From: Giardia intestinalis
Lineage: Eukaryota
Direction: 5' to 3' (one strand)
Length of the DNA: 64,000 bases
Assembly: GCA_000002435.2 (NCBI GenBank)
Contig: CM018792.1
A program made the position numbers and the translations under genes. The notes below the pieces were generated by a model. That model did not search any database and was not told the DNA's origin. It was given only the letters and a program-made list of their open reading frames with translations. Below, in pieces: positions 1,931-31,445 of the stretch. Every line of letters begins with the position of its first letter. Position 1 is the first letter of the stretch.

Positions 1931-1937
1931 GGCATAT

Positions 1938-2381
1938 GTGGGGGTGGATGGCTGCTCAGCATGTACAGCCCCGACAGCTCTGACAACAGCTGGCATGACT
2001 GCTGCTATATGCACCTCTTGTGATAACAGTAAGAAGCCCAACAAGGGTGGCAGTGGGTGCTTCACATGTGCTATCGATGGATGCTCGCACTGCAACAGAG
2101 ACAACATGTGCGAGGCATGTAATGATGGTAAGAAGGTGAGCCCTGGGAGGAAGTCATGCGTGGATGGCTGTCCCAGCAACTCCACTGACACCGACTCTGT
2201 CTGTGTGTGCAGTGATGGGTACAGTCTAGACAGCAGTGGGGCCTCCTGTGTGTCCTCTGGCGCCAACAGGGGCGGGCTCTCCACGGGGGCCATCGCGGGG
2301 ATCTCCGTCGCCGTGGTCGTCGTCGTGGGGGGCCTCGTGGGCTTCCTCTGCTGGTGGTTCGTGTGCAGGGGGAAGGCGTGA
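1938..2381 (+). pseudogene. Orphan 3' fragment of a variant-specific surface protein (VSP) gene. No ATG and no signal peptide (the track 'start' is GTG)
   Basis: CXXC/CXC-rich sequence, then the TM helix '[26 protein letters not shown]' with the invariant CRGKA tail. About 90% nt identity to 28600-28771. Followed at 2381-2394 by ACTTAGATAATAAC, a degenerate version of the VSP extended poly(A) signal. Confidence 0.7.
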
Positions 2382-15516: not shown

Positions 15517-17331
15517 CTAATATGCCTCAACGTGAACTCTATTCTCAGAGCGCATTGTACGGTATTTCTCTGCTCCCACCATGTTTTCAATCACTTTATT
15601 AGATGTATCAACCGCATCATTTGCAGGCCCGCAATAATATACACTCAAGTCCGGTCTATTCAGATCTCTCAACAATCTATCAGGAATGGATGACGAATGG
15701 ATAACGTCCCCCATACGCTTCCCTTTGTAAATGTGCAAAAATGTTCCGTGTGCTGATGTGAAGCTATCTATGTCTAAGCCCTTGCCTTGATTATCTGTCC
15801 CATCATCTCTAGTGAGGCAAAGAACTACGTTTATGACCCCATTCTCCACATCTCGACGGAGCTCCTCTAAAAGCTGCGGCTCTGCATGCGGTATGCTTAA
15901 TAAGAGTAAGTAAGGAGCTAAAGTCTCCACACCATCCATACTAGCTATGGCTGAACGGAGTTCATGATATGCACGGAATGGAGCAAAACCCGAGCCAAAT
16001 GCAACTCCAATGAGTGCCGTCTTTCCACCAAGTAACATAGTAAGCCCAGAATCGCTGAGAAATTGGTTCTGTAGTATTGCAATACGGATGGGCTCGTTAG
16101 AGATAAGAGCTCGTTGAAGATACGAGGGGCCCAAACTATTCTGGATAGAATGTCCATTTCTTGGCTTTGGATTGCCTACTAAAAGGTCCACAGTGCATAC
16201 AGTGTTAGAATCTTCATCCGGATGAGGTAAGGATGCAACACTGTAAAGTCTAGGGTCGATACGAGGACACACACGCAAAAACTTGCCCAGAGGTATCCGT
16301 AGACTGCTAAAATCCAACAGAAAATCATAGATGGTAGGCCATTGGTAAGACAGAATGTCAAATAGAACTGCGTCTTCCGTGAGATACTTTAATTTGAACT
16401 TGTCCTCTGAAGTAGTAGCATATGGGGCTAAAAACGAAATGAGGTTGTACGATGGCTTTGCATTCACGTTACATACGCGACTCAGCAAGTCAACAATCGA
16501 GATAGGATCAGCGGGAAGGTCTGGATCATGAGGGGAATCGATCTGTATAAAGGCAGTAGAGTCTATCGATGTGTCATGCAATGTAAGTACTCCCAAATCG
16601 AGCAGACGATTTATCATGGATTCCTCTATACGTGGGTATACTGCAATGTGTGCTCCTGGAACAAGCATAGGCGAAAGAGTGCTAGGAACGTGCAAATGAT
16701 AAATCCATCCAAAGCTGCTGAGCATGGTGGCAGACAATAACGTAGATTCAGTGATCCGGGGATCAAATAGAGTGTTTTCTGATAAATCGGCGAGATTTTC
16801 TTCGCCGAGTTTCCTTACCGGCACATCCAGAACATGGGAGTCAGTAGTGCCAATTGCAGTGAGAAACTTTTTAACCCAAAGCTGTAACCCTGTCTCCAAC
16901 TCTGATGTGTCTAAGTGGATGGGTTCGACAAGGGTAGGAATGCTGTGACTCTTAAACACGGCTACAGCATCTTGCGATGCTGCACAGAATTGGTGATACT
17001 TGATAGATCCTATGCCTAAAACAGCTATTCGTCTACTAGACCCCAAAAGTTGAGGATTTGCTTCGCGTTTATTGAGCCAGTGACGTGGTCCGGGTTTTGA
17101 CTGCTGCTTAAGGCTTTTCATTAAAGCGTGTGCACTCTGCGGATGCTGTCCGAGTCCATGCGTAGATGTAAGGTAGAGAAGGTCGCCCGTCGGCAAGTCT
17201 TCGAGCGTCCTGATATTCTTGACGTCATACAACTGGGTGGCTATTCCTCGTGAATCCAGAAGCGCTGCTATCTTGTGTGCTAGATTTCTGGCCGTCCCAC
17301 CCACCGTTGCATACACTATGCTCAGGGCCAT
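15517..17331 (-). CDS. Diflavin NADPH oxidoreductase (CPR/Tah18/NDOR1 family)
   Basis: N-terminal flavodoxin-like FMN domain (IVYATVGGTARNLAHKIA...), the FAD motif 'RLYSVAS', and the NADPH motif 'GSGFAPFRA'. Confidence 0.8.
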   Translation of the reverse strand: MALSIVYATVGGTARNLAHKIAALLDSRGIATQLYDVKNIRTLEDLPTGDLLYLTSTHGLGQHPQSAHALMKSLKQQSKPGPRHWLNKREANPQLLGSSRRIAVLGIGSIKYHQFCAASQDAVAVFKSHSIPTLVEPIHLDTSELETGLQLWVKKFLTAIGTTDSHVLDVPVRKLGEENLADLSENTLFDPRITESTLLSATMLSSFGWIYHLHVPSTLSPMLVPGAHIAVYPRIEESMINRLLDLGVLTLHDTSIDSTAFIQIDSPHDPDLPADPISIVDLLSRVCNVNAKPSYNLISFLAPYATTSEDKFKLKYLTEDAVLFDILSYQWPTIYDFLLDFSSLRIPLGKFLRVCPRIDPRLYSVASLPHPDEDSNTVCTVDLLVGNPKPRNGHSIQNSLGPSYLQRALISNEPIRIAILQNQFLSDSGLTMLLGGKTALIGVAFGSGFAPFRAYHELRSAIASMDGVETLAPYLLLLSIPHAEPQLLEELRRDVENGVINVVLCLTRDDGTDNQGKGLDIDSFTSAHGTFLHIYKGKRMGDVIHSSSIPDRLLRDLNRPDLSVYYCGPANDAVDTSNKVIENMVGAEKYRTMRSENRVHVEAY

Positions 17332-17360: not shown

Positions 17361-19223
17361 TCACATTCCCCTCTTTTTGGCTAAAGCAGCGCCAATAAGA
17401 CCTACAAACAAGGGATGAGGCTTTAGCGGCCTAGATAATAGCTCTGGATGAAATTGCACCCCCAAAAAGAAGTCCAAAGAAGGGATTTCCATGATCTCCA
17501 CTAACGAGCTCTCCGTAGAAAGTCCGCTGAACACTACCCCTGCTTCTTCGAATAGAGTCTTGTACCTGCCATTAAACTCATACCTATGCCTGTGCCGTTC
17601 ACGAATGTTCTTACACTGATAACACTTCTGCGCTAGAGTTCCGTTTAGCAAGGTACAATTGCATGCCCCTAAGCGCATGCTTCCTCCCGACCCCCGAATA
17701 AGTGTTGCCGCCAAGGGGTTTGCAGCCTTGACATCTTCTGATATGATTGTGGCTATGACGGGATTGGTGGTTTCGGGATCAAATTCGGTAGAGGTGGCGT
17801 CTTTGAGATTCAGCACATTGTTAGCAAATTCTATAGCCATGCATTGCATTCCAAGACATATTCCAAGAATGGGCTTATTATTTTGTCGACAGTATTTGAT
17901 GGCTTCAAGCTTCCCGCTAACTCCCCTGCTCCCAAATCCACCAGGAATAATGATGGCATCTACGTTTTCCAAAGTGACCGTCGCTGGAACAAAATTACTG
18001 GTCTCGGTGTGTAGTTTCTCCTCAAACTTAGCAGGCTCAGCGGATTGTGCTTTTGGTGCGGGCGTAGAAGAGGAGGCTCTGTCCGCTCCTTCACAGGTGT
18101 CGCTCACTATTGAAAGGATATCCACATAGCAGTTACTGTGAGCAGCTGCATGATGTATCGCTTCATATACCGAAATGTACGCGTCACGAAGCTCTACGTA
18201 CTTACCTACCAAGCCTATGCGGATATGTGATTTCTTATCATATTCCTTGCATGCCAGAGCATCACCTGTTGATAAAGTGGCCGGGTGAATAAATCTTTCA
18301 ACTATCTCGCTCCACTTATCAAGACTTGCTTCAGCTTCTTTCTCTGCTGTAGCCCTAATGGGTATTACGTTAAAGAGATTAAAAACAAGTGCAGGAACGT
18401 GCTTAATAAGTAATGGGAGCTGATAGATTGATTGTACGGTAAAATTTTCAATAACATGGTCCTTCGAAAGACCACAGGAATGCGCTAACTTAGCTATAGT
18501 CTCCTTTGGCAAATGGGTGTCTGTACGGCACACAAGAAAGTCTGGTTTTATGCCAACAGACAGAAGAGTCCGAACTGAGTGCTGTGTGGGCTTAGTCTTA
18601 AGTTCTTTTCCATTTGACAGTACCGGGATGTAGCTAACATGGAAGCTACAAGCATTGCATCTTCCCACATCATCAATAAGCTGGCGCATAGCCTCAAGAA
18701 ATGCCGTTGATTCCATATCACCGACAGTTCCCCCTATCTCTATTATCACAAACCGCTTTTGAGTGGAGGCCAGTGGAGCAGAATGCTTACGTTGAGGCTC
18801 TGAATTTTCTCCCGGTACGGTAGATATCAGTTCAAAGCACCGCATCCGCGCTTTGATTTCGTCAACTATCTGAGGAACTACCTGCACTGTCATGCCATTG
18901 TAGCCACCCTCACGTTCCCTCTGGATCACAGTAGAATAGATAGACCCGGTAGTGACGCTAGACAGTCTGGTGAGATTTGTATCCAAAAAACGTTCGTAGT
19001 GGCCTAAGTCCAAGTCTGTCTCTGCGCCATCGTCGGTAACAAAGACCTCACCATGCTGATATGGGGACATTAGTCCGGGATCAACGTTTATGTATGGATC
19101 GCACTTTTGCATCACAACGTCATATCCATAACTCTTGATGAGCATCCCCAATGAGGCAGCAAAGAGACCCTTTCCTATACCGGAAATAACTCCTCCGGTA
19201 ACGAAGATGTAGTACGTTTGCAT
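17361..19223 (-). CDS. CTPS: CTP synthase
   Basis: 'YIFVTGGVISGIGKGLFAASLG...KCDPYINVDPG...GEVFVTDDGAETDLDLGHYERFL' and the C-terminal GATase 'PILGICLGMQ'. Confidence 0.92.
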   Translation of the reverse strand: MQTYYIFVTGGVISGIGKGLFAASLGMLIKSYGYDVVMQKCDPYINVDPGLMSPYQHGEVFVTDDGAETDLDLGHYERFLDTNLTRLSSVTTGSIYSTVIQREREGGYNGMTVQVVPQIVDEIKARMRCFELISTVPGENSEPQRKHSAPLASTQKRFVIIEIGGTVGDMESTAFLEAMRQLIDDVGRCNACSFHVSYIPVLSNGKELKTKPTQHSVRTLLSVGIKPDFLVCRTDTHLPKETIAKLAHSCGLSKDHVIENFTVQSIYQLPLLIKHVPALVFNLFNVIPIRATAEKEAEASLDKWSEIVERFIHPATLSTGDALACKEYDKKSHIRIGLVGKYVELRDAYISVYEAIHHAAAHSNCYVDILSIVSDTCEGADRASSSTPAPKAQSAEPAKFEEKLHTETSNFVPATVTLENVDAIIIPGGFGSRGVSGKLEAIKYCRQNNKPILGICLGMQCMAIEFANNVLNLKDATSTEFDPETTNPVIATIISEDVKAANPLAATLIRGSGGSMRLGACNCTLLNGTLAQKCYQCKNIRERHRHRYEFNGRYKTLFEEAGVVFSGLSTESSLVEIMEIPSLDFFLGVQFHPELLSRPLKPHPLFVGLIGAALAKKRGM

Positions 19224-19293
19224 GAAATAGCAATTATTTTATTCCCTTTACTCCGCAATACCATTACCTTTCAATAAGGCGTCTAACCCGGCT

Positions 19294-19445
19294 GTGAATG
19301 AGGTGAATAATCATAGGATATCATATGAGGAAAATATTGTGGTACTTACTCTTACCGCAATTGCAAAGCGTGGGAGTGTCACAGAATATCCTGATTCCAC
19401 GTATGAGAACGGTGTCACAGCTCTCATAAGAGCTGCAAATAGGGG
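19294..19445 (+). pseudogene. Ankyrin-repeat gene stub (~50 aa) cut off at the start of a GC-rich block
   Basis: '...NGVTALIRAANRGEW' ankyrin unit. Composition switches abruptly at ~19445. Confidence 0.4.
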
Positions 19446-22430
19446 AGAGTGGAAACAGCAAGACTCCCGGCCCCCCTCCACGAAGGAGGCCAGGAGCCAG
19501 GGAGGGCTGACGCCGGAAGACAGCGGAGGCGCTTTGCATCAGCATCGCCAGGCCAACTGGGCTCTGTCAGCAGCACCAGGAACGGAGCGCCACAGGGCCA
19601 TGGTAAGGGCACGGGGTCGCGAGCATGGGAGAAGCACTCTGCCCAGCGCCTGCTTGCTTGGTAGGACCGGGCGCCAGAGGGGCATGTTGCCATCGGGGTA
19701 TCTCTGTCACTAATGCGCAGCGCATTGGAACACGTGCCTGGGGCCGCATCCCTTCGGCCGGGCAGACAGCCGCTAGGCTCGGCGTGAAGATGGAAGCCGT
19801 GATAGCGGACGCCGTCTCCCGGAGCAGCGCCCCCGCACAGAGCCGGCTATGCCGCGCTAGCTCGCTCGATAAGGGGCATGGGGGTCCCTTACGACGCCCT
19901 TCGGCATCTGCCGTGTCACAGGTACCCATGGCCACGAGCAGCACAGGGGACGCGGCTATGTGGGCAGGGTAGCGTATTCATGGAGGGGCAGCTGCTTCAC
20001 CTGTGCATGGCGGCGCCGGCCAGCACGTCTAGCTGCCCCACTGGCGACCACTCCTTCCCTGTGCTTGCCACAATGGGAGGGCACGTGCGCCCGTAGACCG
20101 GCAGATGCCGTGCTGGTCCTCTCGAGCAATATGCGCATCCTTGCGTGACATCCAGCGTGGACCAGATACCACGACCTGGGCCATCGCTACTGGCAAGGCA
20201 AGTGCTGGTTGCAGCAGGGACGCCCGCCGCCCTCCAAGATAGACCAGCGACCTGCGCACCAGCTGCTATGGGCCTAACCTGCCGGGAACCTGGATCACAG
20301 CGCACTTGTCAAGGCCGCACACTCATTTGCATACTCGCCGCTAGCGTTGGACAACTGCGAGGTGTCCGTCTCCGGCCGCGCTCGCCTTAGTGTTTGGTCC
20401 ATGGTGATACGCCTCAGCCGAGGAGGCTATCCGTACGCGGCAGTTCCCGGAGAGAAGGCAGGGGTGGCCGGCGGGCCTGGGAGATAGGATTAGCACTAGC
20501 GAGTCCAGCCATCGGCCCGGGTTGCACAAAGGACGCCTGTAGTGCCTCCCCGGCTTCTGAGCATGGAAGGGCTGTGGGGTCTGCAGATGAGACGGACGCT
20601 GCATTTTGATTTTATGTGTTTGTAGCAGCATAGTATTTATCGGGGTCTGCTCTGTCTGAAACCGAGAACATTCGCTTTCTTTCCTTATACAGGCTGGGAT
20701 CGATTGTAGAGGTGTACTGTGCAAACCGGTGGCGGTCAGCGTATCTACTATCCAAACAGATACTGCCTGCGTCCTCCTGTGGCAGACCACCACCAGGACC
20801 CAATCTACACAGCTACCCTGGGGCACCTGTCGGGCAATCATCACCTCCTGTCGAAGGATTGCTGTACGTCACACATCCTGAGTCGTCCATCGACCAGGTG
20901 GTGCCATAAGCTCTTGTCCCCTACTTGTCCACTCAATGCAGACTCTGAGCGCCGCCAGTTGCACTCACGTCTGCACTACTCATCTGGATGCCCCCCACTC
21001 TTCAAGAGCACATGCCCGCAGCCGATGCTCCGTATTACGAGAGGAGCCAGCCGGGCCACTGCGCTGTGCATAGCTCTCATGGGCGTATTGTTATGCGCGC
21101 CCAGCCTTTCCATCCATAAGTCACCACGCGGCTCTTTCCCACCGTCTCGCGTTCACACGTGTGCCGGCACCACCGAGCTTTTGTGGTCTCGAGTGGCCCT
21201 GATGCATGGAGCGCTTGCGCAAAGTCCTTCCACCACTGACCCAGGCCGACCCCTCGCAAGATCCTTAGCGGAGTTGCATCCGAGATGTGTGTCTGCGTTG
21301 CTGTCCAGGTGCATGTGCCGGCCCTGGTGCTTCTCACAAGCTTGCGAGCATCGAGCTGGCCTCTACCGAACCGTATCAGAAGTCAGCACCAGGATGTAGT
21401 CCCCTCGGTTGGGCTCTGCAGGCTCCCAGAGCTACACACCAAAAGGCCGTTTTTCTTTGGTTGTGCAGCGTGGGGAGATGCATCGAACTACCACACCCTC
21501 TCTGTGTGGCGTGTTTTACGGTGGGGGACGGGATCCCTGTGCTCACTGTCTATCTGCCCAGGGCCAGCCGCAGCCCGGGTTGACGATGACAAGCGAGCAT
21601 CACCTGGCTCCTTGTCAGCAGGTGGGAGATCCCGCCACCCTAGTGCCCACAACAAAGGGTGCCAATCACTGGCAGAAGGACAAGACACCCAGGCTCCCGT
21701 TCCTTCCACTGATGGTAGCCCACTATGAAGAGCCCTTTGCCGCCTGCACCAACAACCTCAGGCACTGTGGGTCCAAGTACTTCCATAGTGGACAGTGGTA
21801 GCACTATGATGATCTGGGATGATAGGAGTCCTAGTTCACTGGCTCAGGAGGCAGCACGCTTTGGGTGGTTCTTCCCTCTTGTCCAGATCTGGGAGGGCTG
21901 GCTGCCTTCTGAACCCCCTGGCACCTTGTTATGCGGTGGGAACTTTAGTAGTATTTAGTACACGAGATCAGAGCTATGCACACACCAGGCTAGAGAGTCT
22001 CATGGGCTTGCCTCCGTTGGTCCACGCTTCCACGGACCCGGTATCTCCTCCAGGGACCGCAAGAGAGCACAGAAGGCTGTGGCCAGGGAGCAAAAGCCCC
22101 TGGAGAGGAGATGCTAGCAGCTGTGCTACTGGAGCAGGAGGAGCATCGCTGCTCACTTAGGATTTCCTGGTTCCGCATGCACAGAGATCTCGGAGTCGGT
22201 GCCTGGCTGGGAGAGCAGGTTGTACAAGGGACGCGTTTGCTATCTAAATCTACACCTTGCCTCTGCAGAGGAAGCCAACGAATACTCCACAGCAATGTAC
22301 AAGAGTGCACCCCGACCAATCATTCCACAGGAGAGGTGCGATCTGAGCCTGGCCCTCACTGGTCCTGTTCCTACTGAAGCCAGGGGGAACTGCGCTATCA
22401 GCTGGCCTCCGGTTGGCGTGCTCCTGATTT
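19446..22430. other. ~3-kb GC-rich (~60%) block lacking any credible ORF. Identity unknown (a dead mobile element, rDNA-associated DNA or another junk insertion)
   Basis: Only short overlapping ORFs in all six frames. Bounded by the ankyrin stub on the left and the VSP promoter on the right. Atypical for this compact genome. Confidence 0.45.
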
Positions 22431-22544
22431 TATTCTTTTCCATCTAATTGATTTATCAAAAGGTAACAGTGGTTTGTCTACAACTTCTGGATTGATTACA
22501 AGCTTAATTGAAGAGAATGATAATCGAGTGTAAGCTTAAACTTA

Positions 22545-25500
22545 ATGTTAGCAGTAATTCTTTTAGCGTGCACAACGGTTCTAGCAGGAATCGTCCCGAA
22601 AACGGCCTGCAATCCAGAGATACCCGGCTGTGCGACGTGCACAACGACTGGGAGCGAGCAGACCTGCACAAGCTGTGCGACGGGCGGAGAGAAGGTCAGG
22701 CCGGACAAGAAGGGCTGCATCCCGCAGTGCCCTCCTGACGTGAGCACAGAGAGCGGTGAGTTCTGCGAGTGCAAGAGCACGCACCAGCCCTCGCCGGACG
22801 GGCAGACGTGTGTCCCGAAGACAGGGGCCTGCAATCCAGAGATACCCGGCTGTGCGACGTGCACAACGACTGGGAGCGAGCAGACCTGCACAAGCTGTGC
22901 GACGGGCGGAGAGAAGGTCAGGCCGGACAAGAAGGGCTGCATCCCGCAGTGCCCTCCTGACGTGAGCACAGAGAGCGGTGAGTTCTGCGAGTGCAAGAGC
23001 ACGCACCAGCCCTCGCCGGACGGGCAGACGTGTGTCCCGAAGACAGGGGCCTGCAATCCAGAGATACCCGGCTGTGCGACGTGCACAACGACTGGGAGCG
23101 AGCAGACCTGCACAAGCTGTGCGACGGGCGGAGAGAAGGTCAGGCCGGACAAGAAGGGCTGCATCCCGCAGTGCCCTCCTGACGTGAGCACAGAGAGCGG
23201 TGAGTTCTGCGAGTGCAAGAGCACGCACCAGCCCTCGCCGGACGGGCAGACGTGTGTCCCGAAGACAGGGGCCTGCAATCCAGAGATACCCGGCTGTGCG
23301 ACGTGCACAACGACTGGGAGCGAGCAGACCTGCACAAGCTGTGCGACGGGCGGAGAGAAGGTCAGGCCGGACAAGAAGGGCTGCATCCCGCAGTGCCCTC
23401 CTGACGTGAGCACAGAGAGCGGTGAGTTCTGCGAGTGCAAGAGCACGCACCAGCCCTCGCCGGACGGGCAGACGTGTGTCCCGAAGACAGGGGCCTGCAA
23501 TCCAGAGATACCCGGCTGTGCGACGTGCACAACGACTGGGAGCGAGCAGACCTGCACAAGCTGTGCGACGGGCGGAGAGAAGGTCAGGCCGGACAAGAAG
23601 GGCTGCATCCCGCAGTGCCCTCCTGACGTGAGCACAGAGAGCGGTGAGTTCTGCGAGTGCAAGAGCACGCACCAGCCCTCGCCGGACGGGCAGACGTGTG
23701 TCCCGAAGACAGGGGCCTGCAATCCAGAGATACCCGGCTGTGCGACGTGCACAACGACTGGGAGCGAGCAGACCTGCACAAGCTGTGCGACGGGCGGAGA
23801 GAAGGTCAGGCCGGACAAGAAGGGCTGCATCCCGCAGTGCCCTCCTGACGTGAGCACAGAGAGCGGTGAGTTCTGCGAGTGCAAGAGCACGCACCAGCCC
23901 TCGCCGGACGGGCAGACGTGTGTCCCGAAGACAGGGGCCTGCAATCCAGAGATACCCGGCTGTGCGACGTGCACAACGACTGGGAGCGAGCAGACCTGCA
24001 CAAGCTGTGCGACGGGCGGAGAGAAGGTCAGGCCGGACAAGAAGGGCTGCATCCCGCAGTGCCCTCCTGACGTGAGCACAGAGAGCGGTGAGTTCTGCGA
24101 GTGCAAGAGCACGCACCAGCCCTCGCCGGACGGGCAGACGTGTGTCCCGAAGACAGGGGCCTGCAATCCAGAGATACCCGGCTGTGCGACGTGCACAACG
24201 ACTGGGAGCGAGCAGACCTGCACAAGCTGTGCGACGGGCGGAGAGAAGGTCAGGCCGGACAAGAAGGGCTGCATCCCGCAGTGCCCTCCTGACGTGAGCA
24301 CAGAGAGCGGTGAGTTCTGCGAGTGCAAGAGCACGCACCAGCCCTCGCCGGACGGGCAGACGTGTGTCCCGAAGACAGGGGCCTGCAATCCAGAGATACC
24401 CGGCTGTGCGACGTGCACAACGACTGGGAGCGAGCAGACCTGCACAAGCTGTGCGACGGGCGGAGAGAAGGTCAGGCCGGACAAGAAGGGCTGCATCCCG
24501 CAGTGCCCTCCTGACGTGAGCACAGAGAGCGGTGAGTTCTGCGAGTGCAAGAGCACGCACCAGCCCTCGCCGGACGGGCAGACGTGTGTCCCGAAGACAG
24601 GGGCCTGCAATCCAGAGATACCCGGCTGTGCGACGTGCACAACGACTGGGAGCGAGCAGACCTGCACAAGCTGTGCGACGGGCGGAGAGAAGGTCAGGCC
24701 GGACAAGAAGGGCTGCATCCCGCAGTGCCCTCCTGACGTGAGCACAGAGAGCGGTGAGTTCTGCGAGTGCAAGAGCACGCACCAGCCCTCGCCGGACGGG
24801 CAGACGTGTGTCCCGAAGACAGGGGCCTGCAATCCAGAGATACCCGGCTGTGCGACGTGCACAACGACTGGGAGCGAGCAGACCTGCACAAGCTGTGCGA
24901 CGGGCGGAGAGAAGGTCAGGCCGGACAAGAAGGGCTGCATCCCGCAGTGCCCTCCTGACGTGAGCACAGAGAGCGGTGAGTTCTGCGAGTGCAAGAGCAC
25001 GCACCAGCCCTCGCCGGACGGGCAGACGTGTGTCCCGAAGACAGGGGCCTGCAATCCAGAGATACCCGGCTGTGCGACGTGCACAACGACTGGGAGCGAG
25101 CAGACCTGCACAAGCTGTGCGACGGGCGGAGAGAAGGTCAGGCCGGACAAGAAGGGCTGCATCCCGCAGTGCCCTCCTGACGTGAGCACAGAGAGCGGTG
25201 AGTTCTGCGAGTGCAAGAGCACGCACCAGCCCTCGCCGGACGGGCAGACGTGTGTCCCGAAGACAGGGGCCTGCAATCCAGAGATACCCGGCTGTGCGAC
25301 GTGCACAACGACTGGGAGCGAGCAGACCTGCACAAGCTGTGCGACGGGCGGAGAGAAGGTCAGGCCGGACAAGAAGGGCTGCATCCCGCAGTGCCCTCCT
25401 GACGTGAGCACAGAGAGCGGTGAGTTCTGCGAGTGCAAGAGCACGCACCAGCCCTCGCCGGACGGGCAGACGTGTGTCCCGAAGACAGGGGCCTGCAATC

Positions 25501-28496
25501 CAGAGATACCCGGCTGTGCGACGTGCACAACGACTGGGAGCGAGCAGACCTGCACAAGCTGTGCGACGGGCGGAGAGAAGGTCAGGCCGGACAAGAAGGG
25601 CTGCATCCCGCAGTGCCCTCCTGACGTGAGCACAGAGAGCGGTGAGTTCTGCGAGTGCAAGAGCACGCACCAGCCCTCGCCGGACGGGCAGACGTGTGTC
25701 CCGAAGACAGGGGCCTGCAATCCAGAGATACCCGGCTGTGCGACGTGCACAACGACTGGGAGCGAGCAGACCTGCACAAGCTGTGCGACGGGCGGAGAGA
25801 AGGTCAGGCCGGACAAGAAGGGCTGCATCCCGCAGTGCCCTCCTGACGTGAGCACAGAGAGCGGTGAGTTCTGCGAGTGCAAGAGCACGCACCAGCCCTC
25901 GCCGGACGGGCAGACGTGTGTCCCGAAGACAGGGGCCTGCAATCCAGAGATACCCGGCTGTGCGACGTGCACAACGACTGGGAGCGAGCAGACCTGCACA
26001 AGCTGTGCGACGGGCGGAGAGAAGGTCAGGCCGGACAAGAAGGGCTGCATCCCGCAGTGCCCTCCTGACGTGAGCACAGAGAGCGGTGAGTTCTGCGAGT
26101 GCAAGAGCACGCACCAGCCCTCGCCGGACGGGCAGACGTGTGTCCCGAAGACAGGGGCCTGCAATCCAGAGATACCCGGCTGTGCGACGTGCACAACGAC
26201 TGGGAGCGAGCAGACCTGCACAAGCTGTGCGACGGGCGGAGAGAAGGTCAGGCCGGACAAGAAGGGCTGCATCCCGCAGTGCCCTCCTGACGTGAGCACA
26301 GAGAGCGGTGAGTTCTGCGAGTGCAAGAGCACGCACCAGCCCTCGCCGGACGGGCAGACGTGTGTCCCGAAGACAGGGGCCTGCAATCCAGAGATACCCG
26401 GCTGTGCGACGTGCACAACGACTGGGAGCGAGCAGACCTGCACAAGCTGTGCGACGGGCGGAGAGAAGGTCAGGCCGGACAAGAAGGGCTGCATCCCGCA
26501 GTGCCCTCCTGACGTGAGCACAGAGAGCGGTGAGTTCTGCGAGTGCAAGAGCACGCACCAGCCCTCGCCGGACGGGCAGACGTGTGTCCCGAAGACAGGG
26601 GCCTGCAATCCAGAGATACCCGGCTGTGCGACGTGCACAACGACTGGGAGCGAGCAGACCTGCACAAGCTGTGCGACGGGCGGAGAGAAGGTCAGGCCGG
26701 ACAAGAAGGGCTGCATCCCGCAGTGCCCTCCTGACGTGAGCACAGAGAGCGGTGAGTTCTGCGAGTGCAAGAGCACGCACCAGCCCTCGCCGGACGGGCA
26801 GACGTGTGTCCCGAAGACAGGGGCCTGCAATCCAGAGATACCCGGCTGTGCGACGTGCACAACGACTGGGAGCGAGCAGACCTGCACAAGCTGTGCGACG
26901 GGCGGAGAGAAGGTCAGGCCGGACAAGAAGGGCTGCATCCCGCAGTGCCCTCCTGACGTGAGCACAGAGAGCGGTGAGTTCTGCGAGTGCAAGAGCACGC
27001 ACCAGCCCTCGCCGGACGGGCAGACGTGTGTCCCGAAGACAGGGGCCTGCAATCCAGAGATACCCGGCTGTGCGACGTGCACAACGACTGGGAGCGAGCA
27101 GACCTGCACAAGCTGTGCGACGGGCGGAGAGAAGGTCAGGCCGGACAAGAAGGGCTGCATCCCGCAGTGCCCTCCTGACGTGAGCACAGAGAGCGGTGAG
27201 TTCTGCGAGTGCAAGAGCACGCACCAGCCCTCGCCGGACGGGCAGACGTGTGTCCCGAAGACAGGGGCCTGCAATCCAGAGATACCCGGCTGTGCGACGT
27301 GCACAACGACTGGGAGCGAGCAGACCTGCACAAGCTGTGCGACGGGCGGAGAGAAGGTCAGGCCGGACAAGAAGGGCTGCATCCCGCAGTGCCCTCCTGA
27401 CGTGAGCACAGAGAGCGGTGAGTTCTGCGAGTGCAAGAGCACGCACCAGCCCTCGCCGGACGGGCAGACGTGTGTCCCGAAGACAGGGGCCTGCAATCCA
27501 GAGATACCCGGCTGTGCGACGTGCACAACGACTGGGAGCGAGCAGACCTGCACAAGCTGTGCGACGGGCGGAGAGAAGGTCAGGCCGGACAAGAAGGGCT
27601 GCATCCCGCAGTGCCCTCCTGACGTGAGCACAGAGAGCGGTGAGTTCTGCGAGTGCAAGAGCACGCACCAGCCCTCGCCGGACGGGCAGACGTGTGTCCC
27701 GAAGACAGGGGCCTGCAATCCAGAGATACCCGGCTGTGCGACGTGCACAACGACTGGGAGCGAGCAGACCTGCACAAGCTGTGCGACGGGCGGAGAGAAG
27801 GTCAGGCCGGACAAGAAGGGCTGCATCCCGCAGTGCCCTCCTGACGTGAGCACAGAGAGCGGTGAGTTCTGCGAGTGCAAGAGCACGCACCAGCCCTCGC
27901 CGGACGGGCAGACGTGTGTCCCGAAGACAGGGGCCTGCAATCCAGAGATACCCGGCTGTGCGACGTGCACAACGACTGGGAGCGAGCAGACCTGCACAAG
28001 CTGTGCGACGGGCGGAGAGAAGGTCAGGCCGGACAAGAAGGGCTGCATCCCGCAGTGCCCTCCTGACGTGAGCACAGAGAGCGGTGAGTTCTGCGAGTGC
28101 AAGAGCACGCACCAGCCCTCGCCGGACGGGCAGACGTGTGTCCCGAAGACAGGGGCCTGCAATCCAGAGATACCCGGCTGTGCGACGTGCACAACGACTG
28201 GGAGCGAGCAGACCTGCACAAGCTGTGCGACGGGCGGAGAGAAGGTCAGGCCGGACAAGAAGGGCTGCATCCCGCAGTGCCCTCCTGACGTGAGCACAGA
28301 GAGCGGTGAGTTCTGCGAGTGCAAGAGCACGCACCAGCCCTCGCCGGACGGGCAGACGTGTGTCCCTTCTAACACAAACAAGAGTAGCGGCCTTTCTACC
28401 GGCGCTATTGCAGGCATTGCTGTGGCCGCTGTCATTGTCGTTGGGGGCCTCGTGGGATTCTTGTGTTGGTGGTTCCTCTGCCGGGGCAAGGCGTAG
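22545..28496 (+). CDS. Variant-specific surface protein (VSP) of 1,983 aa: signal peptide, 26 identical 74-aa cysteine-rich repeats, TM helix and CRGKA tail
   Basis: Start context ttaATGtt (PyAatgTT). Signal peptide 'MLAVILLACTTVLAG'. Repeat unit 'TGACNPEIPGCATCTTTGSEQTCTSCATGGEKVRPDKKGCIPQCPPDVSTESGEFCECKSTHQPSPDGQTCVPK'. C-terminus '...[26 protein letters not shown]'. Poly(A) signal ACTTAGGTAGTGAAT at 28509-28523. Confidence 0.9.
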   Translation: MLAVILLACTTVLAGIVPKTACNPEIPGCATCTTTGSEQTCTSCATGGEKVRPDKKGCIPQCPPDVSTESGEFCECKSTHQPSPDGQTCVPKTGACNPEIPGCATCTTTGSEQTCTSCATGGEKVRPDKKGCIPQCPPDVSTESGEFCECKSTHQPSPDGQTCVPKTGACNPEIPGCATCTTTGSEQTCTSCATGGEKVRPDKKGCIPQCPPDVSTESGEFCECKSTHQPSPDGQTCVPKTGACNPEIPGCATCTTTGSEQTCTSCATGGEKVRPDKKGCIPQCPPDVSTESGEFCECKSTHQPSPDGQTCVPKTGACNPEIPGCATCTTTGSEQTCTSCATGGEKVRPDKKGCIPQCPPDVSTESGEFCECKSTHQPSPDGQTCVPKTGACNPEIPGCATCTTTGSEQTCTSCATGGEKVRPDKKGCIPQCPPDVSTESGEFCECKSTHQPSPDGQTCVPKTGACNPEIPGCATCTTTGSEQTCTSCATGGEKVRPDKKGCIPQCPPDVSTESGEFCECKSTHQPSPDGQTCVPKTGACNPEIPGCATCTTTGSEQTCTSCATGGEKVRPDKKGCIPQCPPDVSTESGEFCECKSTHQPSPDGQTCVPKTGACNPEIPGCATCTTTGSEQTCTSCATGGEKVRPDKKGCIPQCPPDVSTESGEFCECKSTHQPSPDGQTCVPKTGACNPEIPGCATCTTTGSEQTCTSCATGGEKVRPDKKGCIPQCPPDVSTESGEFCECKSTHQPSPDGQTCVPKTGACNPEIPGCATCTTTGSEQTCTSCATGGEKVRPDKKGCIPQCPPDVSTESGEFCECKSTHQPSPDGQTCVPKTGACNPEIPGCATCTTTGSEQTCTSCATGGEKVRPDKKGCIPQCPPDVSTESGEFCECKSTHQPSPDGQTCVPKTGACNPEIPGCATCTTTGSEQTCTSCATGGEKVRPDKKGCIPQCPPDVSTESGEFCECKSTHQPSPDGQTCVPKTGACNPEIPGCATCTTTGSEQTCTSCATGGEKVRPDKKGCIPQCPPDVSTESGEFCECKSTHQPSPDGQTCVPKTGACNPEIPGCATCTTTGSEQTCTSCATGGEKVRPDKKGCIPQCPPDVSTESGEFCECKSTHQPSPDGQTCVPKTGACNPEIPGCATCTTTGSEQTCTSCATGGEKVRPDKKGCIPQCPPDVSTESGEFCECKSTHQPSPDGQTCVPKTGACNPEIPGCATCTTTGSEQTCTSCATGGEKVRPDKKGCIPQCPPDVSTESGEFCECKSTHQPSPDGQTCVPKTGACNPEIPGCATCTTTGSEQTCTSCATGGEKVRPDKKGCIPQCPPDVSTESGEFCECKSTHQPSPDGQTCVPKTGACNPEIPGCATCTTTGSEQTCTSCATGGEKVRPDKKGCIPQCPPDVSTESGEFCECKSTHQPSPDGQTCVPKTGACNPEIPGCATCTTTGSEQTCTSCATGGEKVRPDKKGCIPQCPPDVSTESGEFCECKSTHQPSPDGQTCVPKTGACNPEIPGCATCTTTGSEQTCTSCATGGEKVRPDKKGCIPQCPPDVSTESGEFCECKSTHQPSPDGQTCVPKTGACNPEIPGCATCTTTGSEQTCTSCATGGEKVRPDKKGCIPQCPPDVSTESGEFCECKSTHQPSPDGQTCVPKTGACNPEIPGCATCTTTGSEQTCTSCATGGEKVRPDKKGCIPQCPPDVSTESGEFCECKSTHQPSPDGQTCVPKTGACNPEIPGCATCTTTGSEQTCTSCATGGEKVRPDKKGCIPQCPPDVSTESGEFCECKSTHQPSPDGQTCVPKTGACNPEIPGCATCTTTGSEQTCTSCATGGEKVRPDKKGCIPQCPPDVSTESGEFCECKSTHQPSPDGQTCVPKTGACNPEIPGCATCTTTGSEQTCTSCATGGEKVRPDKKGCIPQCPPDVSTESGEFCECKSTHQPSPDGQTCVPSNTNKSSGLSTGAIAGIAVAAVIVVGGLVGFLCWWFLCRGKA
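22605..28368 (+). repeat. Perfect head-to-tail array of 26 x 222 bp (coding tandem repeat inside the VSP)
   Basis: Unit starts (gcctgcaatccagag...) recur exactly every 222 nt (22605, 22827, ...). All shadow ORFs are identical, implying ~100% identity between units. Confidence 0.9.
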
Positions 28497-28508
28497 ATTT
28501 AACTGTAC

Positions 28509-28523
28509 ACTTAGGTAGTGAAT
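28509..28523 (+). terminator. VSP extended polyadenylation signal ACTTAGGTAGTGAAT (AGTRAAY core)
   Basis: Lies 13 nt downstream of the VSP stop. The same 15-mer class recurs after the VSP relic at 28771-28785 (ACTTAGGTAGTAAAT). Confidence 0.6.
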
Positions 28524-28552
28524 GCTGCACAGTGATGGGGTGATAGTGCTAT

Positions 28553-28771
28553 GTGGGTGATTGCAAGCACTGTGTGGTGGATGATGTGTGTGGGGAGTGC
28601 AGTGATGGATACAGTCTAGACAGCAGTGGGGCCTCCTGTGTGTCTTCTAGCAGTAATAGGAGCGGGCTCTCCACGGGGGCCATAGCTGGCATCTCCGTCG
28701 CTGTCATCGCTGTCGTGGGGGGCCTCGTGGGCTTCCTCTGCTGGTGGTTCCTCTGTAGAGGGAAGGCGTGA
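28553..28771 (+). pseudogene. Orphan VSP 3' fragment of 72 codons. No ATG (the track start is GTG) and no signal peptide
   Basis: '...[57 protein letters not shown]' plus the poly(A) signal at 28771-28785. Paralogous to 2200-2394. Confidence 0.7.
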
Positions 28772-28859
28772 CTTAGGTAGTAAATGCGTCGACGAATCCA
28801 GTGTGGCCCAATCACTCGTTCAGCCCAATACTTGACCCTGTTTTTGAAATAAAGCTATC

Positions 28860-31445
28860 ATGACCGACGGTGATGACCACACAGTCAGCCCCTCAGCGGC
28901 GGCCCTCGCCATCCCACAGTTCACCTTTGAGGACCTTCGCGAGCGGCTGGGCAGTGTGTTAAGAAGAGACGCCGCAGCTGTAGTCTACTCCCTCGAGGGC
29001 TATCCAAACCTCGCTGTGCAGGAGATCCTCCTCGATGGCCTGGACAAGGGGGATCTGGACGCCATCAAGACAAGATTGACCGTCATCCTTACCCTCTCCC
29101 ACCCGGGGGTCCTCAAGCACCACCAAGTAGTCGAGGACGAGGGCCTCATCTACGTCGTCACGGACCGGCACGACAGGACCCTCGAGCGCCTCCTCACCGA
29201 GCACAAACGAAGGAAGATCCCCGTGTCTGCCGGCGTGATCCTCTCCGTCATGAAACAGCTCGCCGCCGCCCTCGCCTATCTTCATGGTCTCAGCGGGGTA
29301 GGTGCTAATGGGCTTGTCCACTGCGACCTCAGGCCTGCCAACGTCCTCATCAGCGCAGACGGGGAGCGCTTCGTCATCGCCGACTTCGGCCTCTGCAGAA
29401 ACACATTGTGGAGTGAGAGCACCATTGCAGGCATGGCAGTATACATGGCCCCCGAGATGCTCCTCCACAACGAGCCCAGCCCCGCCTCCGATGTGTGGAG
29501 CCTCGGGGTCATCCTCTACGAGATGGCCACTCTGAGGAGACCGGACTTCCTGAAAGGTAAAGACCCAAAAGACGTCTTCGTCGACAGGTGGAGGCCGGAC
29601 CTGAGCAGTGTCACCGATGGCTTCATAAAGAGTGTTCTGGAGAGGATATTCGTGCTGGAGCCAGAGGAAAGACTGACAGCCAGGGAGCTGCACGAGACGC
29701 TCACTGCGGCTGACATCCCAGTTGGTGAGCTGGGGGCTCAGTACGCGATGCTGAAGTACGAATGCGGATCCCTGAAGGCCGCTCTGAACAGTGCTAACGC
29801 TAGGATTGCTACTCTTGAGGCAGCCCTCGACGCCAGGTCTACTGAGATGGTGTCTCAGTCAACCGAGACTGCCTCTCTCAAGGACGCACTTGAAGATCAG
29901 TGCAAGGAGCATCTGGCCATGATTAAGGCACTAGAGAATAGATTCACAGAATTTAGTGGTGGGATGAACACGAGTAGCTCCCAGATCAACCTCTCTGCGC
30001 TGCCTCAACTGATCCGTGCTGCACACACGAATGACATGGAGACTGTCCGGATGCTGGTCAGCGAAGGGATTGGCATCGGCCAGCGCGACGAGCAGGGGAT
30101 GACGGCCCTTATGCACGCGGCCCAGCAAGGGCACGTTGGCCCTGTCAGGCTGCTTGTTGAGAGGGGGAATGGCCTCCAGGATAGGAACGGCTGGACTGCG
30201 CTCATGCACGCCGCACACAACGGCCACCCTGGGGCGGCTAGGATCCTCGCTCCTTACGAGTACTGGAGGAGAGACAACAACGGCCGCACCGCCCTGATGA
30301 TGGCCACACAGCAAGGGAGCCTTGAAGTGGTAAAGCTCCTTCTTGATCATGAGAAGGGGCTGAAAGATAAGCAACATCACAACGCCCTATACCATGCTCT
30401 CGAGAATGGCCACTTAGGGGTTGCCGAGATGATCATTCCCTACGAGGACCCCACAGATGAGAAGGGCGTCACGGCACTCATGAGAGCCGCAGCCAGAGGG
30501 GACACTGGGATGGTAAGGCTGCTTATACCAGTTCAGAAAGGAATAAAGGATAGCAATGGGGACACAGCGTTCATGCACGCCCTCAAGAATCAGCACGCAG
30601 ACATAGCTCTGCTTCTTCGCGAGCATGAGGCCCCCTCGTGGACCCCGCTCATGTGCGCGGCCTTCACTGGAGACGTTACCATGGTGAGGAGGCACTTCCA
30701 TGAGAGAGACGTGAAGAACAGCGACGGCGAGACTGCGCTGGTGATTGCTGCAAGGAAAGGATACAGGGAAATCGTCGAGCTCCTCGATCCCACAGATGAG
30801 AATGGCGTCACAGCGCTCATGCGAGCTGTTGACAGAAACGATCTGATGGCTGTGAAGGCCCTCCTTCCTCTCCAGGGGGGACAGAAAGCGACGGGGGATG
30901 TCAGGATAGGCAAGCTGATTATATACGGTGGAACGGCGCTGATGATAGCAGCAGCACGTGGTCACACAAGGATAGTGGAACTGCTCGTGGAGAAGGAGGG
31001 CGGGATGCAGACAAGTTATGGTTCGACAGCCCTCATAAGGGCAGCGGAGAATGGTCACACAGACTGTGTTAGACTACTAGTAAAGAAGGAGGGCGGGGTA
31101 CAGAATAAGTATGGATGGACAGCTCTCATGAGTGCAGCACAGAATGGCTATACAAGGATAGTGGAAGTACTCCTGGAAAAGGAAGGGGGTATGCAAAGGA
31201 GTGACGGCCAGACAGCCCTCATGAGTGCAACACAGTATGGTCATACAGACTGCACTAGAATATTGCTAGAGAAGGAGGGTGGGATGCAGAACAATGGTGG
31301 TTCGACAGCCCTCATGTTCGCAGTAAGGTATGGCCACCTAGAGTGTGTTAAGCTACTCCTAGAGAAGGAGAAGAACATAGACAGGAGGAAGCTCTTGAAC
31401 ACAGCCGAGGGAAATGAAGAGATACTAGCGATCCTCTCGAAGTAG
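28860..31445 (+). CDS. NEK-family Ser/Thr protein kinase with a coiled coil and a C-terminal ankyrin-repeat domain
   Basis: Kinase motifs 'HCDLRPANVL', 'IADFGLCR', 'YMAPE', 'DVWSLGVILYEM'. Coiled coil at ~aa 290-370. At least 12 ankyrin units follow. A/T-rich initiator upstream. Confidence 0.85.
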   Translation: MTDGDDHTVSPSAAALAIPQFTFEDLRERLGSVLRRDAAAVVYSLEGYPNLAVQEILLDGLDKGDLDAIKTRLTVILTLSHPGVLKHHQVVEDEGLIYVVTDRHDRTLERLLTEHKRRKIPVSAGVILSVMKQLAAALAYLHGLSGVGANGLVHCDLRPANVLISADGERFVIADFGLCRNTLWSESTIAGMAVYMAPEMLLHNEPSPASDVWSLGVILYEMATLRRPDFLKGKDPKDVFVDRWRPDLSSVTDGFIKSVLERIFVLEPEERLTARELHETLTAADIPVGELGAQYAMLKYECGSLKAALNSANARIATLEAALDARSTEMVSQSTETASLKDALEDQCKEHLAMIKALENRFTEFSGGMNTSSSQINLSALPQLIRAAHTNDMETVRMLVSEGIGIGQRDEQGMTALMHAAQQGHVGPVRLLVERGNGLQDRNGWTALMHAAHNGHPGAARILAPYEYWRRDNNGRTALMMATQQGSLEVVKLLLDHEKGLKDKQHHNALYHALENGHLGVAEMIIPYEDPTDEKGVTALMRAAARGDTGMVRLLIPVQKGIKDSNGDTAFMHALKNQHADIALLLREHEAPSWTPLMCAAFTGDVTMVRRHFHERDVKNSDGETALVIAARKGYREIVELLDPTDENGVTALMRAVDRNDLMAVKALLPLQGGQKATGDVRIGKLIIYGGTALMIAAARGHTRIVELLVEKEGGMQTSYGSTALIRAAENGHTDCVRLLVKKEGGVQNKYGWTALMSAAQNGYTRIVEVLLEKEGGMQRSDGQTALMSATQYGHTDCTRILLEKEGGMQNNGGSTALMFAVRYGHLECVKLLLEKEKNIDRRKLLNTAEGNEEILAILSK

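Follow-up and report, generated by a model that had tools for sequence, protein, structure and literature searches.

The VSP locus and its neighborhood

Within the window (the whole stretch of Giardia intestinalis DNA analyzed here, 64,000 nucleotides), a complete VSP gene is followed on the same strand by a promoter-less VSP fragment and is preceded by an interval in which only short open reading frames (ORFs) without Pfam matches were found. The features of the locus, with the evidence for them in parentheses, are as follows:

17361-19223, minus strand: CTP synthase
19224-22544, no strand: ca. 3.3 kb without a convincing gene, between CTP synthase and the VSP start
22543-22549, plus strand: candidate initiator (Inr) TAatgTT, of the form PyAatgTT, with the start codon inside (sequence read; published tables)
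22545-28496, plus strand: complete VSP coding sequence, 1,983 aa plus stop, ca. 202 kDa; GL50803_0050163 of strain WB-C6, vsp13 (ORF, translation, database match, Pfam)
22545-22586, plus strand: signal peptide MLAVILLACTTVLA, 14 aa (hydrophobic N-terminal windows)
22604-28366, plus strand: perfect 222-bp tandem array, 25.96 copies (Tandem Repeats Finder, periodicity test, motif counts)
28367-28403, plus strand: membrane-proximal linker SNTNKSSGLSTG (translation; aligns with a conserved 13-residue stretch of other VSPs)
28404-28478, plus strand: transmembrane (TM) helix, 25 residues (hydropathy; VSP alignment; AlphaFold2 helix)
28479-28496, plus strand: cytoplasmic CRGKA pentapeptide and TAG stop (translation)
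28509-28523, plus strand: VSP-type extended 3' motif ACTTAGGTAGTGAAT with poly(A) signal AGTGAA, 12 nt past the stop (regex match)
28547-28771, plus strand: promoter-less VSP 3' fragment, 74 codons from stop to stop, vsp14 of Adam et al. 2010 (ORF, translation)
28771-28785, plus strand: 3' motif of the vsp14 fragment, ACTTAGGTAGTAAAT

Regions around VSPs tend toward gene poverty (Xu et al. 2020). Two candidates in the upstream interval were rejected. A 316-aa "gene" upstream on a related contig (L001) is spurious, its frame not being conserved in WB, and a minus-strand ORF near 22267 that ends in FLCRGKV and a stop bears only a chance likeness to the VSP tail, since the STGAIAG/TM context is missing. 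Downstream of the VSP gene, the fragment at 28547 to 28771 has no ATG, Inr, or signal peptide and is the second of the two genes in a "linear array." With 74 aa, 8 Cys, 2 CXXC motifs, and no Inr, it agrees with the vsp14 row of Adam et al. 2010 (PMC2996952). Protein accession numbering continues with KAE8303743.1, a NEK kinase, so that the fragment is without a protein record; it may represent a nonexpressed cassette or a relic.

The signals at both ends of the complete gene agree with the published tables. The N terminus (MLAVILLACTTVLAG) is hydrophobic, and Table S1 of Rodriguez-Walker et al. 2022 gives both a predicted signal peptide and the initiator "taatgtt" for GL50803_0050163; TAATGTT is likewise the Inr given for vsp13 by Adam et al. 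2010 (PMC2996952), in whose catalogue 41% of vsp genes had an Inr, all of them first or stand-alone genes. At the 3' end, the consensus of the extended motif for VSP genes was taken as ACTYAGRTAGTRAAY, and CACTTAGGTAGTGAATGCTG is the motif given for GL50803_0050163 in Table S6 of Rodriguez-Walker et al. 2022. Both this motif and the PyAatgTT Inr are frequent, not universal. In an alignment of 14 VSPs, most columns of the TM segment and the C terminus were invariant. The product is a type I membrane protein. After the signal peptide of 14 aa come an ectodomain of 1,924 aa, a short linker (NKSSGLSTG), the TM helix conserved among VSPs, and the CRGKA tail.

The tandem array and its module

Tandem Repeats Finder described positions 22604 to 28366 as a single tandem array with a period of 222, 26.0 copies, 100% matches, 0% indels, and a score of 11526. 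A direct periodicity test, in which each base was compared with the one 222 positions ahead, gave a perfect run of 5,763 bp (25.96 copies), and all 25 full in-register units were one identical string. When the whole window was searched, no pieces of the unit were found outside the array. The 74 aa encoded by a unit include 10 Cys and the motifs CATC, CTSC, CIPQC, and CEC, and the 26 modules (26 × 74, or 1,924 aa) account for 97% of the protein. The complete protein contains 263 Cys (13.3%), 52 CxxC, 26 CxC, and 26 CxxxC. An earlier note, made by reading the sequence, had described a complete gene with a PyAatgTT initiator, signal peptide, TM helix, CRGKA tail, and poly(A) signal, in which 26 perfectly identical 222-bp repeats with 10 Cys per module and the four motifs named above make up about 97% of the protein. 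This description held in full: all the gene signals are present in the sequence, both repeat tests agree on the array, and the motif counts agree on the module.

The unit has a G+C content of 65%, versus 51% for the window, and three of its six reading frames are without a stop codon. Because of these stop-free frames, the array also carries antisense ORFs of 1,997 and 1,917 aa, which we regard as by-products of the repeat unit and not as genes.

The 74-aa module aligned with the last ectodomain module of nonrepeat VSPs, with all Cys columns conserved, and on this alignment, it is homologous to the membrane-proximal Cys-rich module of ordinary VSPs. Given this homology, the gene is a minimal VSP in which one module was amplified, a clean example of its kind (only the membrane-proximal module, amplified) that may aid epitope or structural work. 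The AlphaFold2 model (mean pLDDT of 79) consists of beta-hairpin modules and the TM helix (H166-187). A Foldseek search of the PDB returned nothing at an E value of ≤1e-3, and the best fold matches were weak (E values of 5e-3 to 0.3, TM scores of ≤0.24, 14 to 25% identity), all of them to EGF-like or furin-like Cys-rich repeats. The predicted module, a stack of small disulfide-bonded beta-hairpins, resembles rods such as Pfs25, R-spondin Fu1-Fu2, and the Cys-rich region of IGF1R/insulin receptor, a likeness of fold class only and not of family membership, so that an EGF-like/furin-like structural class is only suggestive. The glucagon receptor, returned by the PDB sequence search, was discarded as a chance match to the TM helix (E values of ≥0.25).

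Known identity, family membership, and repeat number

The protein is 100% identical to XP_037901952.1/KAE8303742.1, the product of GL50803_0050163, which lies on chromosome 4 in the PacBio reference of Giardia intestinalis WB-C6. Rodriguez-Walker et al. 2022 tabulated this gene with its length, its numbers of Cys and CXXC, Inr, signal peptide, TM helix, tail, and poly(A) motif, and our counts of 263 Cys and 52 CxxC are the figures given there. The older catalogue lists vsp13 as a TR222 gene, the first of a linear array on chromosome 4, with TAATGTT, 725 aa, 74.0 kDa, 93 Cys, and 18 CXXC (Adam et al. 2010, PMC2996952, Additional file 1). When the present protein was cut to nine units, it had 725 aa, 93 Cys, 18 CxxC, and a mass of 73.96 kDa, the values of that row. 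As judged by these tabulated features (chromosome, repeat length, Inr type, composition per unit, and the downstream partner vsp14), GL50803_0050163 is vsp13 of Adam et al. 2010. Both the reference annotation and two published catalogues thus already contained the gene together with its repeat and VSP features, and it is ordinary for Giardia. The earlier note's reading of the locus survives in part. Its account of the structure stands, as does its warning that the copy number could be an assembly estimate (about 8 to 9 units, 725 aa, in the Sanger assembly versus 26 in the PacBio one). The novelty that it implied does not. By the note's own account, the novelty would end if the databases contained a close match among repeat VSPs already described, and they do, XP_037901952.1/vsp13: the exact protein was already annotated, the 222-bp repeat gene was catalogued in 2010, and its features were tabulated in 2022. 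In addition, at least four other WB VSPs carry perfect arrays of homologous modules. As a discovery, the locus is therefore minor, repeat-built VSPs having been known since CRP170/VSPA6 and vspC5.

Membership in the VSP family was assessed with the features used by Xu et al. 2020 and Adam et al. 2010 and with Pfam PF03302. A two-unit construct scored 82 bits against PF03302 (cutoff of 31.4, E value of 5e-23, profile positions 265 to 397 of 397), and the signal peptide, a CXXC-bearing ectodomain in keeping with the about 11 to 13% Cys and many CXXC motifs expected of VSPs, the TM helix with CRGKA, the Inr, and the 3' motif were all found. GGCY and the putative zinc-binding motifs CxxCxxxCxxC and CxxCHxxCxxC had zero occurrences each in the 1,983-aa protein. 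GGCY is a typical VSP feature. The lack of these Cys motifs is still compatible with VSP membership because they occur in only 151 of 218 VSPs (Adam et al. 2010, PMC2996952). By sequence, GL50803_0050163 is an atypical, minimal member of the family in which GGCY and the putative zinc-binding motifs are missing. In the same catalogue, vsp13 fell outside all three clades and could not be placed, and the gene is classed as a VSP, not as a pseudo-VSP (Xu et al. 2020; Rodriguez-Walker et al. 2022). The 25.96 in-frame copies of 222 bp in the ectodomain-coding region place it in the tandem-repeat subgroup, for which repeats of 105 to 516 bp in 2 to >20 copies were described in 30 genes (Adam et al. 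2010, PMC2996952) and which comprised 36 of 136 VSPs in Rodriguez-Walker et al. 2022. A further trait of the VSP family is mutually exclusive expression at the surface, with switching.

Assignment to another Cys-rich family of Giardia (high cysteine membrane proteins [HCMP], high cysteine proteins [HCP], or tenascin-like proteins) could appeal to the Cys richness, to the EGF-like/furin-like fold matches of the predicted structure, and to the missing GGCY. We give it hardly any credence, and it is effectively already refuted by the CRGKA tail and Pfam: the C terminus is exactly CRGKA behind the invariant VSP TM segment, whereas the HCMP of the same window ends in CRGKRRYYR, the Pfam VSP score exceeds the gathering cutoff, and the Inr and 3' motif are of VSP type. 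It is also unlikely, if less so, that the array is real and the gene silent and nonfunctional, a runaway repeat expansion tolerated since VSPs are used one at a time. In favor of this view, a dead VSP fragment adjoins the gene, the GGCY and zinc finger-like motifs of typical VSPs are missing, and expression, protein, or antibody data on GL50803_0050163 were not found in the literature, in which searches of main texts for the accessions and the gene id gave no papers. However, nothing interrupts the 5,952-nt ORF, which comes with Inr, signal peptide, TM helix, CRGKA, and poly(A) motif. The frame has been kept over all 26 units even though an indel of any length not divisible by 3 would lead to a stop-bearing or tail-less frame. 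The gene is moreover the first of its linear array and has the Inr found only on first or stand-alone genes (Adam et al. 2010), expression is known for repeat-only VSPs, among them vspC5 (Adam et al. 2010, PMC2996952), and neither Xu et al. 2020 nor Rodriguez-Walker et al. 2022 treats the gene as a pseudo-VSP.

The repeat number of the same gene is about 8 to 9 in the 2007 Sanger assembly versus 25.96 in the 2020 PacBio assembly. We therefore considered whether the 26 units, and possibly their perfect identity too, are an artefact of assembly or polishing and the true array is substantially shorter, longer, or heterogeneous. Besides the lower number in the Sanger assembly, this is favored by the explicit statement that repeat numbers were approximate and possibly condensed by assembly (Adam et al. 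2010, PMC2996952), by the tendency of consensus polishing to remove rare variants of the unit when reads can be placed at any position of a perfect array, and by a frameshifted unit in another WB repeat VSP (P0125) that resembles an indel error left over from long-read sequencing. The reference, on the other hand, was built from PacBio RS II data (200× coverage, read N50 of 12.7 kb, 10% of reads longer than 20 kb) with HGAP, Quiver, and optical maps, so that many single reads cover the 5.8-kb array and both flanks; BridgeMapper detected no misassemblies, and the scaffolds match the optical maps. Furthermore, other WB arrays are equally homogeneous, and the 222-bp unit is identical in independent short-read assemblies. 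An artefact on this scale is quite improbable. The read N50 of 12.7 kb exceeds the 5.8-kb array, and 26 units are probably the major allele; the tetraploid cell may also contain alleles that differ in copy number. The ca. 9-unit version is the likelier artefact, a collapse in the earlier Sanger assembly, since Sanger reads of <1 kb cannot resolve a perfect array of 5.8 kb. Copy numbers of such arrays are thus assembly dependent (for this gene, 9 versus 26 units, 74 versus 202 kDa), and studies that use the protein length, mass, or read counts of this VSP need the long-read model. Overall, we are highly confident that the locus is GL50803_0050163 (vsp13), a minimal VSP with an amplified module, in which 26 units are probably the major allele and the expansion was probably recent or is continually homogenized.

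Relatives and proposed origin of the array

Searches for orthologs with other copy numbers found none: a full-length protein query returned only the WB protein itself and four other WB repeat VSPs, and a two-unit query found a one-unit protein (P0002) and no multiunit ortholog. The arrays of the other WB VSPs have 10.2 × 75, 11.8 × 75, 16.3 × 74, and 23.6 × 80 aa, with 0 to 1 substitutions at the protein level. P0124 (1,602 aa, 16.3 × 74 aa) lies on chromosome 4 too, P0125 has 1,949 aa (23.6 × 80 aa), and P0003 is a two-unit protein of 205 aa on chromosome 5. P0122, P0123, P0124, P0125, and P0003 have the module type of this gene (C..C-x8-C..C ... C...C ... C.C ... C) at 30 to 68% identity to it, and in P0122 to P0125, the arrays are perfect or nearly so at the protein level. 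P0125 and P0003 share an identical 41-residue tail and the repeat-only layout with this gene, while P0122, P0123, and P0124 differ in having a normal VSP body of 300 to 370 aa with GGCY after the array.

Among the described repeat VSPs, the WB gene vspC5 (vsp90) has a similar copy number (about 25) and a similar layout, with a short leader (66 bp, versus 59 bp here) and then the array up to the conserved 3' region, so that the ectodomain is nearly all repeat; its unit, however, is 105 bp (35 aa) instead of 222 bp (74 aa, 10 Cys). VSPA6/CRP170 (vsp67), with about 22 to 23 copies of a 195-bp repeat, is likewise a large VSP of WB that consists mostly of a perfect array located directly after the signal peptide; it differs in unit length and in having about 1.3 kb of nonrepeat VSP body between array and tail, where this gene has none. 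According to Adam et al. 2010 (PMC2996952), the copy number of vspA6 and vspC5 varies between alleles, the VSPA6 repeat is immunodominant and gives size variants through copy number change, and repeat sequences are reportedly unique to each gene. By analogy with other VSPs, the product of GL50803_0050163 would be displayed on the surface and, when expressed, should be an immunodominant repetitive antigen, as is documented for the 195-bp repeat of VSPA6. Its ectodomain might form an elongated, disulfide-stapled beta-hairpin rod presenting the same epitope 26 times, and changes in copy number would generate size variants.

One-unit relatives were found in metagenomes. Short-read contigs carried a one-unit, 133-aa version whose unit was identical to that of WB at 213 of 213 nt, with flanks 6 to 11% diverged from WB. 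The leader, one 222-bp unit, and the tail start were nucleotide identical between WB and another Giardia lineage in at least three metagenomes; that lineage, with syntenic flanks diverged by 6 to 11%, seems to have one unit versus 26 in WB. Two scans of metagenome contigs from JGI, with the inter-unit junction and an internal 33-mer of the unit as probes, found 0 matches each. A search with the NEK fragment of the related contigs (L001 to L003) returned only paralogs at 47 to 78% identity and not the WB ortholog, and the cluster of the neighboring NEK kinase contained only WB. An identical unit in one-unit relatives suggests a very recent expansion and possibly cassette exchange. A stronger version depends on both the nucleotide identity and the single unit of that lineage being real. 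Diverged lineages would then exchange or convert VSP cassettes, or an unusual constraint would act on the cassettes at the nucleotide level, and the 1-to-26 amplification in WB would be very recent; this is a speculation to which we assign a low probability. If it were true, the amplification would be too recent for a single substitution, and the locus would offer a natural clock by which to time repeat expansions in antigen genes.

An initial duplication between leader (..GTCCCGAAAAC..) and unit end (..GTCCC..) may have founded the array, and unequal sister chromatid or allelic exchange, or replication slippage, would then have increased the number of units. The expansion would be recent or continually homogenized because the 26 units do not differ in a single nucleotide, either among themselves or from the one unit of a relative with 6 to 11% diverged flanks.

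Against this origin, the inter-unit junction seen in the array (GTCCCGAAGACAGGGGCC) is not exactly the one expected from a simple leader/end exchange.

Sequence and architecture of the tandem array

The earlier note had claimed that a 1,983-aa VSP in the window consists of 26 identical 222-bp repeats. Tandem Repeats Finder reported a single array there (period 222, 26.0 copies, 100% matches, indels = 0), and a direct periodicity test found w[i]=w[i+222] at every base over 5,763 bp, that is, 25.96 copies, all full units being one identical string. The claim was thus confirmed by both methods. No 30-mer of the unit was found outside the array when the 64-kb window was searched. The main features of the gene are as follows.

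Features of the VSP gene
22543 (+), candidate initiator TAatgTT holding the start codon
22545-28496 (+), intact VSP open reading frame of 1,983 codons enclosing the array
22604-28366 (+), 222-bp tandem array

The unit has 65% GC and is stop-free in three of the six frames. Two antisense open frames that span the array (22496-28489 and 22581-28334, both on the - strand; 1,997 and 1,917 aa) are a by-product of this property of the repeat and were not taken as evidence of genes.

The protein begins with a hydrophobic stretch (MLAVILLACTTVLA, residues 1 to 14) and a 6-residue leader precedes 26 units of 74 aa with 10 Cys each. Counted over the whole protein, each unit carries two CxxC, one CxxxC, and one CxC motif, and the Cys total is 263 (13.3%). 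The array is followed directly by SNTNKSSGLSTG, the transmembrane (TM) segment, and the stop, with ACTTAGGTAGTGAAT 12 bases 3' of it. A two-unit construct matched Pfam VSP (PF03302) with 82 bits against a cut-off of 31.4. A motif search of the whole protein found neither GGCY nor CxxCxxxCxxC or CxxCHxxCxxC, since the gene lacks a conventional VSP body. The initiator, signal peptide, TM helix, CRGKA tail, and poly(A) signal listed in the earlier note were all located where it had placed them, and its structural interpretation is correct.

The vsp13/vsp14 locus and the number of units

The implied novelty did not hold, as both the gene and its repeat are already known. The exact protein is annotated as "VSP" in Giardia intestinalis ATCC 50803 / WB clone C6 (KAE8303742.1 / XP_037901952.1 / A0A644F5S0), encoded on a 2,761,001-bp contig. 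Its gene id is GL50803_0050163 (NC_051859.1, chromosome 4), tabulated with 5,952 nt, 1,983 aa, Inr "taatgtt", 263 Cys, 52 CXXC, a signal peptide, a TM segment, CRGKA, and the 3' motif CACTTAGGTAGTGAATGCTG in a study that found tandem repeats in 36 of 136 WB VSPs (Rodriguez-Walker et al. 2022 supplementary tables, bioRxiv 10.1101/2022.03.07.483299). The 222-bp repeat was already listed in 2010, in the vsp13 row of Adam et al. (2010 Additional file 1, PMC2996952): first gene of a linear array, chromosome 4, complete, Inr TAATGTT, TR222 with 222 nt per repeat and "8" repeats, 725 aa, 74.0 kDa, 93 Cys (12.8%), and 18 CXXC. The same authors placed vsp13 among three VSPs between clades II and III. 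Trimmed to nine units, the present protein has exactly 725 aa, 93 Cys, and 18 CxxC, with 73.96 kDa. The entry below it, vsp14 (a linear-array member without Inr, 74 aa, 8 Cys, 2 CXXC; PMC2996952), agrees with the stop-to-stop open frame at 28547-28771. On these two matches, we identify the locus with the vsp13/vsp14 linear array.

The window derives from the 2020 reference, sequenced with PacBio RS II at 200x (read N50 of 12.7 kb, 10% of reads >20 kb), assembled with HGAP and Quiver, and scaffolded by optical map with limited Illumina correction (Xu et al. 2020, PMC7000408). Reads that long cover the 5.8-kb array plus both flanks, so that, judging from the published read lengths, we regard 26 units as a sound estimate for the major allele and the nine-unit Sanger version as a collapsed array; allelic copy-number variants are possible. 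The earlier note's warning that the copy number might be an assembly estimate therefore stands only in a weaker form, in that the number changed once between assemblies (9 to 26). This difference is one of two residual points of interest.

Other elements in the window
1782-2381 (+), second promoter-less VSP C-terminal fragment, 199-codon open frame
15517-17331 (-), flavodoxin/FAD reductase, upstream of the VSP
17361-19223 (-), CTP synthase, upstream of the VSP
19224-22544, 3.3-kb stretch without a convincing gene, adjoining the VSP upstream
28547-28785 (+), promoter-less VSP 3' fragment (vsp14) including its 3' motif, 50 nt beyond vsp13
28860-31445 (+), NEK kinase (KAE8303743.1 / XP_001709670.1) with ~15 ankyrin repeats, directly downstream of VSP/vsp14
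downstream of the VSP, ABC ATPase
56435-58852 (+), HCMP-like gene, 805-aa cysteine-rich membrane protein

The vsp14 fragment (74 codons from stop to stop) ends in CRGKA and is followed by its own ACTTAGGTAGTAAAT; no ATG, Inr, or signal peptide was found in 28547-28771, and the reference assigns it no protein accession. The fragment at 1782-2381, also with neither ATG nor signal peptide, shares its last ectodomain stretch (17 residues) with vsp14 and has a degenerate ACTTAGATAATAAC motif beyond its end. The product of 56435-58852, despite a Pfam VSP match of 132 bits, ends in ...FLCWWFICRGKRRYYR* in place of CRGKA, for which reason we rejected it as a VSP and consider it an HCMP-type relative. 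The stretch at 19224-22544 contained only short open frames with no Pfam hits and a frame not conserved in the metagenome contig L001, in agreement with the gene-poor surroundings of VSPs (Xu et al. 2020, PMC7000408). At 90% identity, the NEK kinase clusters only with itself, the WB protein.

One-unit relatives and a possible origin of the array

Short-read metagenome contigs, drawn from at least three ENA samples and built by two assembly programs, encode a 133-aa protein (P0002 / P0159) in which the vsp13 signal peptide is followed by a single unit and the tail.

Contigs compared with window 20514-30789
L001, 1-3120
L002, 1-1336
L003, 1-3002

All three show synteny with the window in the order upstream spacer, VSP, NEK kinase. 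At the DNA level the unit (213/213) and the tail over its first 73 nt are identical to WB and the leader nearly so (58/59), versus 91-96% identity upstream and 89-94% in the NEK gene. The contigs have a single hybrid tail whose 3' part matches that of vsp14, which is thus absent as a separate element. A single unit could arise from de Bruijn-graph collapse of a longer array; however, three contigs pass through the unit unbroken, and from these assemblies we lean towards a real single unit. If so, the identity of the unit argues that amplification in the WB lineage was very recent. Identity is highest over the VSP cassette, a pattern that suggests conversion or exchange and resembles a conversion or introgression tract, and this identical cassette within diverged flanks is the other residual point of interest.

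The sequence joining adjacent units (TGTGTCCCGAAGACAGGGGCCTGC) resembles that of the leader (ATCGTCCCGAAAACGGCCTGC), and GTCCC closes the last unit before the sequence diverges, making it plausible that the initial duplication occurred by exchange at this short homology, after which unequal exchange or slippage would have enlarged the array. The junction is not the exact product expected from a leader/end exchange.

Homologous modules, predicted fold, and expected display

When the 74-aa unit was aligned with 13 related VSPs, every Cys column was conserved, and the unit proved homologous to the cysteine-rich module that ordinary VSPs carry last, next to the membrane. Related modules occur two or three times in small VSPs from several isolates (P0003, P0004, P0005, P0006, and P0008), and in four more large WB VSPs homologous modules of 74-80 aa form long arrays (10.2, 11.8, 16.3, and 23.6 copies), with 0, 1, and 0 substitutions between neighbouring units in the first three. 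The fourth, P0125 (1,949 aa), has a tail identical to that of vsp13 and is likewise repeat-only. Neither perfect homogeneity nor a length near 2,000 aa is therefore exceptional in the repeat-VSP subgroup, where both are normal. In P0125 (1,485,438-bp contig), one unit at residues about 345-400 is out of frame (QAWTERGRTAAHTSRPGAGPG...) before the frame is restored, the rest of the 23.6 x 80-aa array being otherwise perfect; it has the look of two long-read indels left uncorrected in the reference annotation.

A literature search by accessions and gene id found no expression data for GL50803_0050163. From what is known of VSPs (Adam et al. 2010, PMC2996952; Xu et al. 2020, PMC7000408), we infer that the protein would be secreted to the trophozoite surface and anchored by its TM helix, leaving CRGKA on the cytoplasmic side, and that, with one VSP expressed at a time, it would present a 26-fold repeated epitope.

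A PDB sequence search with the VSP gave no meaningful match. In an AlphaFold2 model covering the tail and the two units before it (mean pLDDT, 79), each unit was a series of short beta-hairpins and the tail a helix. Foldseek matches to PDB were weak (best E = 5e-3, TM <= 0.24), all of them EGF-like or furin-like cysteine-rich repeats (Pfs25, R-spondin Fu1-Fu2, and the IGF1R Cys-rich region), and these results are consistent with an ectodomain that may form a disulfide-stapled rod.
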